From positions 1 through 64,000 of IMG/VR virus record IMGVR_UViG_3300013137_002967: DNA of 64,000 nucleotides; one strand, 5' to 3'. Shown here piece after piece: positions 6,141 to 6,787 of this stretch (position 1 is the first letter of the stretch; each line of letters opens with the position of its first letter). This DNA is from a virus. The notes under the pieces are model-generated. The model had not been told where the DNA came from. It worked only from the letters and a program-made list of their open reading frames with translations, and did no database searches. A program made the translations under genes and the position numbers.

Positions 6141-6176
6141 AAAACGGTAAGTGAAATATTCACTTACCGTTTTTTT
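6141..6176. terminator. bidirectional intrinsic terminator closing the tRNA operon
   Basis: AAAACGGTAAGTGAA-ATA-TTCACTTACCGTTTT inverted repeat with A/T runs. Confidence 0.85.
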
Positions 6177-6177
6177 G

Positions 6178-6250
6178 TACCTCCACCCAGATTCGAACTG
6201 GGATATCAAGAGCCTAAATCTTGCGCGACTGCCGATTACGCCATGGAGGC
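6178..6250 (-). tRNA. tRNA-Leu(TAG), short 4-nt variable loop, no encoded CCA
   Basis: Acceptor GCCTCCA/TGGAGGT, anticodon arm CAAGA-TTTAGGC-TCTTG, T arm CCCAG-TTCGAAT-CTGGG, A73. Confidence 0.9.
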
Positions 6251-6255
6251 TTATG

Positions 6256-6329
6256 TGCTCCTACCCAGATTCGAACTGGGACTATTCTACTTTTGAGATA
6301 GACGACTCTGCCAATTGGCCTATAGGAGC
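6256..6329 (-). tRNA. tRNA-Leu(CAA), short 5-nt variable loop, no encoded CCA
   Basis: Acceptor GCTCCTA/TAGGAGC, anticodon arm TCTAT-CTCAAAA-GTAGA, T arm CCCAG-TTCGAAT-CTGGG, A73. Confidence 0.9.
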
Positions 6330-6338
6330 ATTATTATG

Positions 6339-6412
6339 TAGACCACATCAGATTCGAACTGATACTTTAACGATCTTAAATCGTTTGCCGCTGCCAATTG
6401 GGCTAGTGGTCC
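6339..6412 (-). tRNA. tRNA-Leu(TAA), short 5-nt variable loop, no encoded CCA
   Basis: Acceptor GGACCAC/GTGGTCT, anticodon arm AACGA-TTTAAGA-TCGTT, T arm ATCAG-TTCGAAT-CTGAT, A73. Confidence 0.9.
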
Positions 6413-6418
6413 ATTTTG

Positions 6419-6494
6419 TACCCTTGGTGGGAATCGAACCCACAGAAAGTCTTGGTTCTTAGCCAAGCGGATATGCCTATTCTCCTACAAGGGC
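6419..6494 (-). tRNA. tRNA-Leu(AAG), 7-nt variable loop, A34, no encoded CCA
   Basis: Acceptor GCCCTTG/CAAGGGT, anticodon arm CTTGG-CTAAGAA-CCAAG, T arm GTGGG-TTCGATT-CCCAC, A73. Confidence 0.9.
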
Positions 6495-6501
6495 ATTTTT
6501 G

Positions 6502-6586
6502 TAGTCCTGGAGAGACTCGAACTCTCAATCCTCAAAGGGCATTAGTTCTTAAGACTAACGTGTATCGCCATTTCCACCACAGGACC
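6502..6586 (-). tRNA. tRNA-Leu(TAA), canonical class II with long variable arm
   Basis: Acceptor GGTCCTG/CAGGACT, anticodon arm TTAGT-CTTAAGA-ACTAA, 15-nt variable region, T arm GAGAG-TTCGAGT-CTCTC, A73. Confidence 0.92.
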
Positions 6587-6608
6587 ATAGTTGAAAGAAC
6601 TATAAAAT

Positions 6609-6639
6609 AAAAAAACCTCAGTTTTTGACTGAGGTTTTT
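6609..6639 (-). terminator. attenuator terminator upstream of the tRNA-Leu array
   Basis: AAAAACCTCAGT-CAAAA-ACTGAGGTTTTTTT on minus strand, about 22 nt before the first tRNA. Confidence 0.85.
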
Positions 6640-6662
6640 ATTAATTGTGTATATAATTGATA

Positions 6663-6752
6663 TTACAATAGCATAAATCGCTCAGTCAACTTGTTGCATA
6701 ACAAGAGGTTTAAGAGCAGTACTAGGTTCATTATGTTATTGTAGTTTTTCAT
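6663..6752 (-). CDS. Leu-rich attenuator leader peptide (29 aa, not in ORF track)
   Basis: MKNYNNIMNLVLLLNLLLCNKLTERFMLL*; 10 Leu codons of 5 types; contains TTGACTGAG complementary to the terminator 5' arm. Confidence 0.85.
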   Translation of the reverse strand: MKNYNNIMNLVLLLNLLLCNKLTERFMLL

Positions 6753-6779
6753 TTCGTTTTTAGTTATTCTTATATGATG

Positions 6780-6787
6780 CAAATATA
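6780..6787 (-). promoter_or_regulatory. TAnnTTTG promoter of the leader/tRNA-Leu operon
   Basis: TATATTTG 27 nt upstream of the leader ATG. Confidence 0.7.

Follow-up and report, generated by a model that had tools for sequence, protein, structure and literature searches.

The stretch of DNA analyzed in this work, hereafter the window, comprises the first 64,000 nucleotides (nt) of the virus record IMGVR_UViG_3300013137_002967 (86,112 bp, 26% G+C, reading well under code 11). On its minus strand, from position 6787 to position 6141, a promoter-like motif is followed by a 29-codon open reading frame (ORF), a terminator hairpin, five transfer RNA (tRNA) genes that all have leucine (Leu) anticodons, and a closing hairpin. 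This unit is probably a ribosome-mediated, or leader-peptide, transcription attenuator with the five tRNA-Leu genes as its output, a reading that draws on sequence comparison and on modeled RNA folds. The type of mechanism is known, and tRNA genes as its output are new. A Leu-sensing attenuator had been proposed at this locus in an earlier annotation made from the sequence alone (the original prediction). The promoter-like motif, ORF, terminator, and five tRNAs that it named were all recovered on the minus strand where it had placed them, and both the comparison with other phages and the in silico folds speak for the function it suggested.

Anatomy and conservation of the Leu leader

The leader ORF extends from an ATG at 6752-6750 to a stop at 6665-6663, with the frame and stop of the listed ORF 6663..6782. 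Leu accounts for 10 of its 28 non-start residues, compared with 8% in the long ORFs of the record (binomial P = 5e-5). These ten codons are CTA (two), CTG (one), CTC (two), TTA (two), and TTG (three), with no CTT, in line with the predicted sampling of five of the six Leu codons. The rarity claimed for the GC-ending leader codons was also borne out: CTC and CTG represent 3% and 2% of the Leu codons of the record, in which TTA reaches 52% and CTT 17%. The terminator lies between leader and tRNAs, 23 nt past the leader stop and 24 nt ahead of the first of these genes. Its stem pairs 6639-6628 with 6622-6611, with a T run at 6615-6609, and it is predicted on both strands; the fold has an energy of -14.5 kcal/mol (z = -5.7), and none of 200 shuffles was as good. 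The five tRNAs downstream score 51-57 bits with the Rfam tRNA model and are the only tRNAs of the record (86,112 bp scanned).

An exact search with the terminator identified one viral contig with a diverged yet clearly homologous leader, and relatives were collected with a 20-nt pattern from the leader start. This pattern matched 14 viral loci, 11 of which have a Leu-rich ORF followed by the same terminator; at the viral Leu loci, all 49 tRNAs present on that strand within 1.5 kb carry Leu anticodons. Among the 80 metagenome loci listed, 12 possess the leader, and the ten that reach tRNAs before the contig end have 37 tRNAs, again all with Leu anticodons. Taking viral and listed metagenome loci together, 86 of the 86 tRNAs downstream of homologous leaders thus carry a Leu anticodon. 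The association between leader and tRNAs is specific, since the remaining pattern matches (68 of the listed metagenome loci and 2 viral loci) have neither a Leu run nor a downstream tRNA. L005/L014, L148, and most metagenome pattern matches, which show no Leu run, terminator, or tRNA, were rejected as chance matches.

Alignment of the 15 distinct leaders revealed an ATG-to-stop frame of 25-34 codons in all of them, with insertions and deletions in threes in all but L010. The leaders differ in the codons used at the first Leu positions (CTA, CTG, CTC, TTA, or TTG). L010 reads the Leu run in the usual frame and the conserved 3' part in a shifted one, so that two constraints can be told apart: codons are what is conserved in the run, and RNA in the 3' part. 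Codon usage within the leaders differs from that of the record: CTC is present in 15 of 15 leaders in spite of its low share in the record, whereas the more common CTT makes up only 3 of 128 leader Leu codons. Each of the 15 leaders contains at least one CTC, at least one CTA, at least two TTA, and at least one TTG, so that every type of anticodon found in the arrays has at least one codon in the leader. Short ORF, Leu run, terminator, and the antiterminator complementarity described below are all retained at the homologous loci; absence of the Leu run and of the complementarity had been named by the original prediction as evidence against itself.

Table 1. Positions of the elements of the Leu unit in the window, in the order of transcription
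Feature	Position	Strand	Basis or properties
Promoter-like motif TAnnTTTG	6780..6787	-	27 nt upstream of leader ATG
Leader ORF, 29 codons + TAA stop	6663..6752	-	ORF calls; frame kept in 15/15 distinct homologues
Sensor run, codons 10-18	6699..6725	-	Seven Leu codons (CTA, CTG, CTC, TTA, TTG), one Val, one Asn
Protector hairpin, predicted, three tiers	6664..6743	-	-16.2 kcal/mol, z = -2.6
Antiterminator strand, putative, codons 22-24	6681..6689	-	Exact 9-nt complement of 6633-6625
Intrinsic terminator, 12-bp stem, 5-nt loop, U7 tail	6609..6639	-	Terminator call, fold
tRNA, Leu anticodon UAA, long variable arm, 86 nt	6501..6586	-	ARAGORN, Rfam tRNA model
tRNA, Leu anticodon AAG, short variable arm, 77 nt	6418..6494	-	ARAGORN, Rfam tRNA model
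tRNA, Leu anticodon UAA, short variable arm, 75 nt	6338..6412	-	ARAGORN, Rfam tRNA model
tRNA, Leu anticodon CAA, short variable arm, 75 nt	6255..6329	-	ARAGORN, Rfam tRNA model
tRNA, Leu anticodon UAG, short variable arm, 74 nt	6177..6250	-	ARAGORN, Rfam tRNA model
Closing hairpin, 15-bp stem	6141..6173		-21.3 kcal/mol, z = -5.5

Several of the relatives show additional features. A conserved 76-codon ORF is located between the terminator and the tRNAs in 6 of the 15 Leu units (L001 6353-6583, L010, L084, L110, L112, and L113), is reduced to a remnant in L150, and is absent from the record of the window. It matches phrog_20427 (E = 1e-8) and no Pfam family, and neither search assigns a function. 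Given its location, it would be controlled together with the tRNAs. Directly after the terminator of L001, a tRNA-like stretch (6231-6322) has an acceptor-like stem and a T arm; its anticodon loop is unusual, it contains roughly 30 inserted nt, and it is not called by ARAGORN. L106 (940-1106) contains a leader-like ORF with the same 5' frame, an Ala/Ser/Tyr/Arg-rich run, and a strong terminator, and the contig ends before any tRNA. In L100 (1317-1373) and L145 (2258-2314), two copies of the initial 20 leader nt lie 37 nt from each other, which corresponds to a tandem duplication of the leader start.

Match between leader codons and tRNAs in related giant phages

One further pattern match, L007, lies in a complete record of 391 kb (G001). 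Here the same 5' frame is followed by ten codons that encode solely Val, Gly, Gln, and Ala and then by a different terminator, and the tRNAs downstream are those for Val, Ala, Gly, Gly, Gln, and Gln. A fixed rule, which asked for an ORF 12-45 codons long, a T-run hairpin located 10-35 nt past the ORF stop, and a tRNA within 150 nt, was applied to the record of the window and to three related records of 391, 501, and 235 kb. It retrieved 11 units including that of the window. Without exception, the amino acids of the downstream tRNAs are overrepresented in the leader ORF (binomial P from 1e-2 to 3e-7). Among the sister units, a Gln run precedes three Gln tRNAs, a Ser/Arg run precedes Ser and Arg tRNAs, and a Tyr run precedes a single Tyr tRNA. 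Other leaders are multivalent: a Lys/His/Ser/Phe/Trp leader is found ahead of fourteen tRNAs of those five kinds and a Leu/Ile/Thr/Cys/Met leader ahead of twelve tRNAs of those kinds.

When the leaders were reassigned among the arrays, the observed match of 127 of 274 residues was reached in 0 of 200,000 permutations, and for the nine non-redundant units that remain once two homologous duplicates are dropped, the observed match was reached in 3 of 200,000. As an out-of-sample case, the fixed rule was applied to the tRNA regions of the public 735-kb sequence LR756501.1, where it returned two units, one matched (P = 6e-4) and one unmatched. The unmatched ORF overlaps a 42-codon ORF with 25 matching residues out of 41, the terminator of which lies beyond the limit of the fixed rule. 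A relaxed rule, applied to five records (of LR756501.1, to parts), gave 19 candidate ORFs at 17 terminators; 16 candidates had P < 0.01 and one had P = 0.012, and the other two candidates, which are unmatched, each represent an overlapping alternative frame at a terminator for which a matched ORF exists as well. The match between codons and tRNAs is seen at 17 terminators in five records, and at all 17 a hairpin with a U run stands 10-47 nt past the stop of the matched leader. An Arg/Pro/Ala/Gly/Val/Thr leader of G003 was seen by eye and missed by both detection rules. The search among related phages that the original prediction had proposed, for short ORFs and terminators ahead of single-amino-acid tRNA clusters with codons matching the identity of the tRNAs, was in this way answered in its favor.

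The terminators differ between families, and each tends to have a copy of its 3' arm in the last third of the ORF. The longest Watson-Crick run between the 3' part of a leader and the 5' arm of a terminator averages 7.2 nt for cognate pairs, compared with 4.76 nt (standard deviation 1.13) for non-cognate pairs. LR756501.1 has an all-Leu array as well, located behind a Leu-rich ORF that is not homologous to the leader of the window and behind a different terminator; this ORF contains a 9-nt copy of the 3' arm of its own terminator.

The proposed RNA switch and alternative explanations

The predicted antiterminator is an exact 9-nt complementarity between 6681-6689 and 6625-6633, as originally described, and when the 3' part of the leader was shuffled, a run of this length arose in only 4 of 2000 cases. 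Seven core pairs are kept in 15 of 15 homologues. The proposed protector is likewise present in the minimum-free-energy fold, with pairs between 6743-6737 and 6670-6664, 6735-6731 and 6676-6672, 6718-6714 and 6683-6679, and 6705-6700 and 6695-6690, which join the Leu run to part of the antiterminator strand. In the consensus fold of 15 sequences, the core Leu codons are paired with the strand that can alternatively pair with the terminator's 5' arm, and 95% of the cells of protector and terminator are paired. Folding with the leader codons blocked, a check named in the original prediction, gave a clear outcome in one of two models. In a model of the nascent transcript, which extends to the terminator loop and can pair only 3' of the ribosome, the antiterminator forms for an A site up to codon 19 and is impossible from codon 20 on. 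The full-length equilibrium folds, in which the antiterminator displaces the terminator only for an A site at codons 10-12, are ambiguous.

These pairings suggest the following mechanism. Transcription would start upstream of 6775, and a ribosome would translate the 29-codon leader. If Leu decoding is fast, the ribosome would pass codon 19 and cover 6689-6681 before the polymerase completes the terminator, the terminator hairpin (6639-6611) would form, and transcription would end before the first tRNA. A ribosome slowed on the Leu run would instead open the protector and leave 6689-6681 available for pairing with 6633-6625 in the terminator's 5' arm, allowing the polymerase to continue into the tRNA genes. 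The outcome would be a negative feedback in which Leu tRNAs are supplied when Leu decoding is slow.

A number of observations weigh against this reading. The first 20 nt of the leader and the 5' strand of the pairing partner are fixed by ascertainment in the collected relatives, and their conservation carries no weight. Covariation was sought in the antiterminator of the 15 Leu leaders, as had been proposed, and none was found, all seven core pairs being invariant; in the protector and the terminator, only three pairs have changes in both partners among the 15 sequences. In the full-length equilibrium folds the terminator persists for an A site at codons 13-18, and truncated RNA without a ribosome also adopts the antiterminator, leaving the default untranslated state ambiguous. 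By a strict contiguous measure, 4 of the 11 units have no antiterminator run beyond chance. There are also tRNA genes without a leader, namely, Arg-CCT, a Gln/Met group near 201 kb, and a Pro/Glu/Asp group in G001, lone Met and CTA-anticodon tRNAs in G002, and the Ile/Asn/Asp block of LR756501.1. In the window, the Leu identity of the four tRNAs with a short variable arm is read from their anticodon and A73 only. Lastly, a start site may exist downstream of the terminator, as phage-specific promoter types may differ from the motif TAnnTTTG found ahead of the leader.

Some of these points are shared by an alternative that is improbable and yet fares best among those considered: the leader would be translated and codon-matched and would act via ribosome-dependent processing or stability of the tRNA precursor or via Rho-type polarity, the hairpin being a partial constitutive stop. 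The unclean switching of the equilibrium folds, the four units without a significant antiterminator run, and the invariant antiterminator of the Leu family would all agree with it. The hairpin with its U run past the stop of every matched leader does not, nor do the excess of cognate over non-cognate complementarity and the placement of the complementary strand with respect to the sensor run, which fits the classical geometry of an attenuator.

Alternative pairings of terminator and antiterminator would suit a riboswitch-type mechanism as well, and one could imagine an RNA element under the direct control of a bound tRNA, in the manner of a T-box, or of a bound protein (protein-dependent antitermination), with the open frame being incidental. 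This explanation is very unlikely. The varied in-frame codons, the start and stop present in 15 of 15 leaders, and the insertions and deletions in threes argue for translation. Moreover, in an Rfam scan of 5800-7200 (E up to 1), only tRNA reached the threshold; the best cis-regulatory match was the Phe leader, with 22.5 bits against a cut-off of 55, none of the leader families was above threshold, and the T-box model gave no match. Membership of the T-box or of an Rfam leader family was rejected on these grounds.

Very little probability is likewise assigned to a promoter of the tRNAs' own downstream of the terminator, with a leader unit that has no control over them. The promoters of this phage clade may be of other types, and in 6 of the 15 relatives a distance of 270-420 nt, including the 76-codon ORF, separates the terminator from the tRNAs. 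In the window, however, this gap is 24 nt. When the minus strand from 6780 to 6100 was scanned for TAnnTTTG, which we take to be the Bacteroidota -7 promoter consensus, no copy was present downstream of the terminator or within the array; the motif would be of the host type, and the phage's own may differ. A match between leader codons and tRNAs would, in addition, have no reason to exist if the tRNAs were transcribed independently. Finally, a leaky constitutive stop of an upstream transcript, with the ORF as a gene for a hydrophobic peptide or a structured small RNA unrelated to tRNA supply, is likewise very unlikely: the ORF region does fold into a long hairpin and the Leu run would give a hydrophobic segment, but this leaves unexplained why sister ORFs are rich in Gln, Ser/Arg, Tyr, or Lys/His/Phe/Trp, among others, according to the tRNAs downstream, and L010 reads the 3' part of the ORF in another frame. 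A type I toxin-like or membrane-peptide reading was rejected for the same reason, as the composition of the sister ORFs follows the downstream tRNAs.

Relation to known systems, array features, and host

Leader-peptide attenuators control the leu, trp, his, and phe operons of enterobacteria, and multivalent ones control thr and ilvGMEDA. The phage unit resembles them in its short ORF rich in regulatory codons, in the set of protector, antiterminator, and terminator, and in the intrinsic terminator ahead of the controlled genes; as with the thr and ilv leaders, sister units in the related phages are multivalent. It differs in that it is carried by a phage, shows no sequence relation to them (Rfam leader families are unmatched), and has a Leu run that samples several synonymous codons, at least one per anticodon of the array. 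A further difference is that the output of the enterobacterial systems consists of biosynthetic enzymes and that of the phage unit of tRNA genes, for which reason the phage loop would sense and correct the supply of tRNA rather than that of the amino acid. The E. coli pheST attenuator with its pheM leader controls an aminoacyl-tRNA synthetase. It is similar in being a leader-peptide attenuator over a component of the translation apparatus that relieves the stall, whereas its target is a synthetase instead of tRNA genes and it is a cellular element. T-box riboswitches bind uncharged tRNA directly via a single specifier codon and are themselves not translated. They share with the phage unit the sensing of the state of a specific tRNA and the switching between terminator and antiterminator; the window, in contrast, has a translated-looking ORF with many sensor codons and matches no T-box model.

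The nearest published inducible extra tRNA array, as far as the available portions of the sources indicate, is the trn operon of Anabaena sp. PCC 7120, a long tRNA array controlled by promoter repeats and a repressor (PMC8421152). This array resembles the phage unit in being an extra set of tRNA genes that is normally off and is switched on by impaired translation (PMC8421152). It appears to differ in its control, as the terms "leader peptide," "attenuat-," and "terminator" are absent from the available text of PMC8421152 and PMC10272220.

The original prediction stated that no leader-peptide attenuator had been described on a phage tRNA array. A literature search, the scope of which did not extend to subscription journals and supplements, agrees with this, in that no publication describing tRNA genes controlled by a leader peptide was found.

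On a wider view, the Leu cassette may quite possibly be one module of a programmable network of decoding-stress sensors in giant phages, a proposal made more tentatively than that of the attenuator itself. Each tRNA block would be switched separately by its own slow codons, for example, when host tRNAs are depleted or are cut by anticodon nucleases. Every Leu isoacceptor has at least one codon in the leader (TTA, TTG, CTC, and CTA/CTG), and the loss of any single tRNA-Leu might consequently trigger resupply. Such a cassette would evolve through exchange of its sensor codons and of its terminator/antiterminator pair, with the common 5' frame being kept.

If the attenuator operates as proposed, tRNA supply in a virus would be under feedback by a mechanism known for amino acid biosynthesis and one synthetase operon. 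This would account for the timing of tRNA expression in giant phages with dozens of tRNA genes, and the leader sequence would reveal which codons a phage monitors. The sensor would be compact and could be reprogrammed via codon changes. The role of phage tRNAs, be it in codon bias, host shut-off, or escape from tRNA-cleaving defenses, would become directly testable. The same architecture is present in the public sequence LR756501.1, which opens it to immediate checking by others.

Several features of the tRNAs deserve mention. In the window, the four tRNAs at 6177-6494 have a short variable arm (74-77 nt), and one of them has A34 (anticodon AAG); a G1-U72 pair is present in four of the five tRNAs and A73 in all five. 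Short-arm tRNAs with Leu anticodons also occur in relatives, such as CAA (75 nt) in L002 and UAG (74 nt) in L001. In G002 and G003, several tRNAs for Lys, Met, Glu, Asp, Gly, Thr, Pro, and Arg, which are normally short-armed, are called at 84-97 nt, and several calls have anticodons of two or four bases. Anticodon CTA, of the amber suppressor type, is found in G002 (101084-101155) and LR756501.1 (690585-690737), which hints at TAG recoding in part of the phage clade. Upstream of the Ile/Asn/Asp block of LR756501.1 (L195, approximately 187,730-188,100) lies an ORF with a bL12-like end, and a G+C-rich, structured-looking spacer occupies the place of a leader ORF.

The array was predicted to end in a terminator, and the hairpin at 6173-6141 is indeed present. 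Its tail has only four U on the minus strand versus seven T on the opposite strand, and because of this longer T run it is better regarded as a bidirectional terminator common to the array and the convergent gene 5427-6044 (plus strand).

The motif TAnnTTTG has a second copy starting at 6883, also upstream of the leader, and is found at most 130 nt upstream of 10 of the 15 homologous leaders. In the -90 to -10 zones of the ORFs of the record, it occurs 16 times, compared with 6.2 expected (a 2.6-fold enrichment). Given the correspondence of this motif to the Bacteroidota promoter consensus, the phage presumably infects a Bacteroidota host. In G001, a common motif of approximately 14 nt precedes the leaders near 45,900, 27,100, and 302,500 and may be the promoter of these cassettes.

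By BLAST, the region shows only tRNA-level similarity to named phages, with the exception of LR756501.1. DNA of the record is present in lake-water metagenomes, and a look-up of sequencing runs containing 6100-6900 gave no RNA run; contigs of four lake-water DNA runs yielded only identical fragments at the locus, with zero variants. The 149-residue protein encoded upstream had no Pfam or PHROG family and no relative among the viral contigs searched. Two adjoining genes for 205-residue nucleotidase-like proteins of the NT5C/HAD type (4746-6044) are convergent on the tRNA array.

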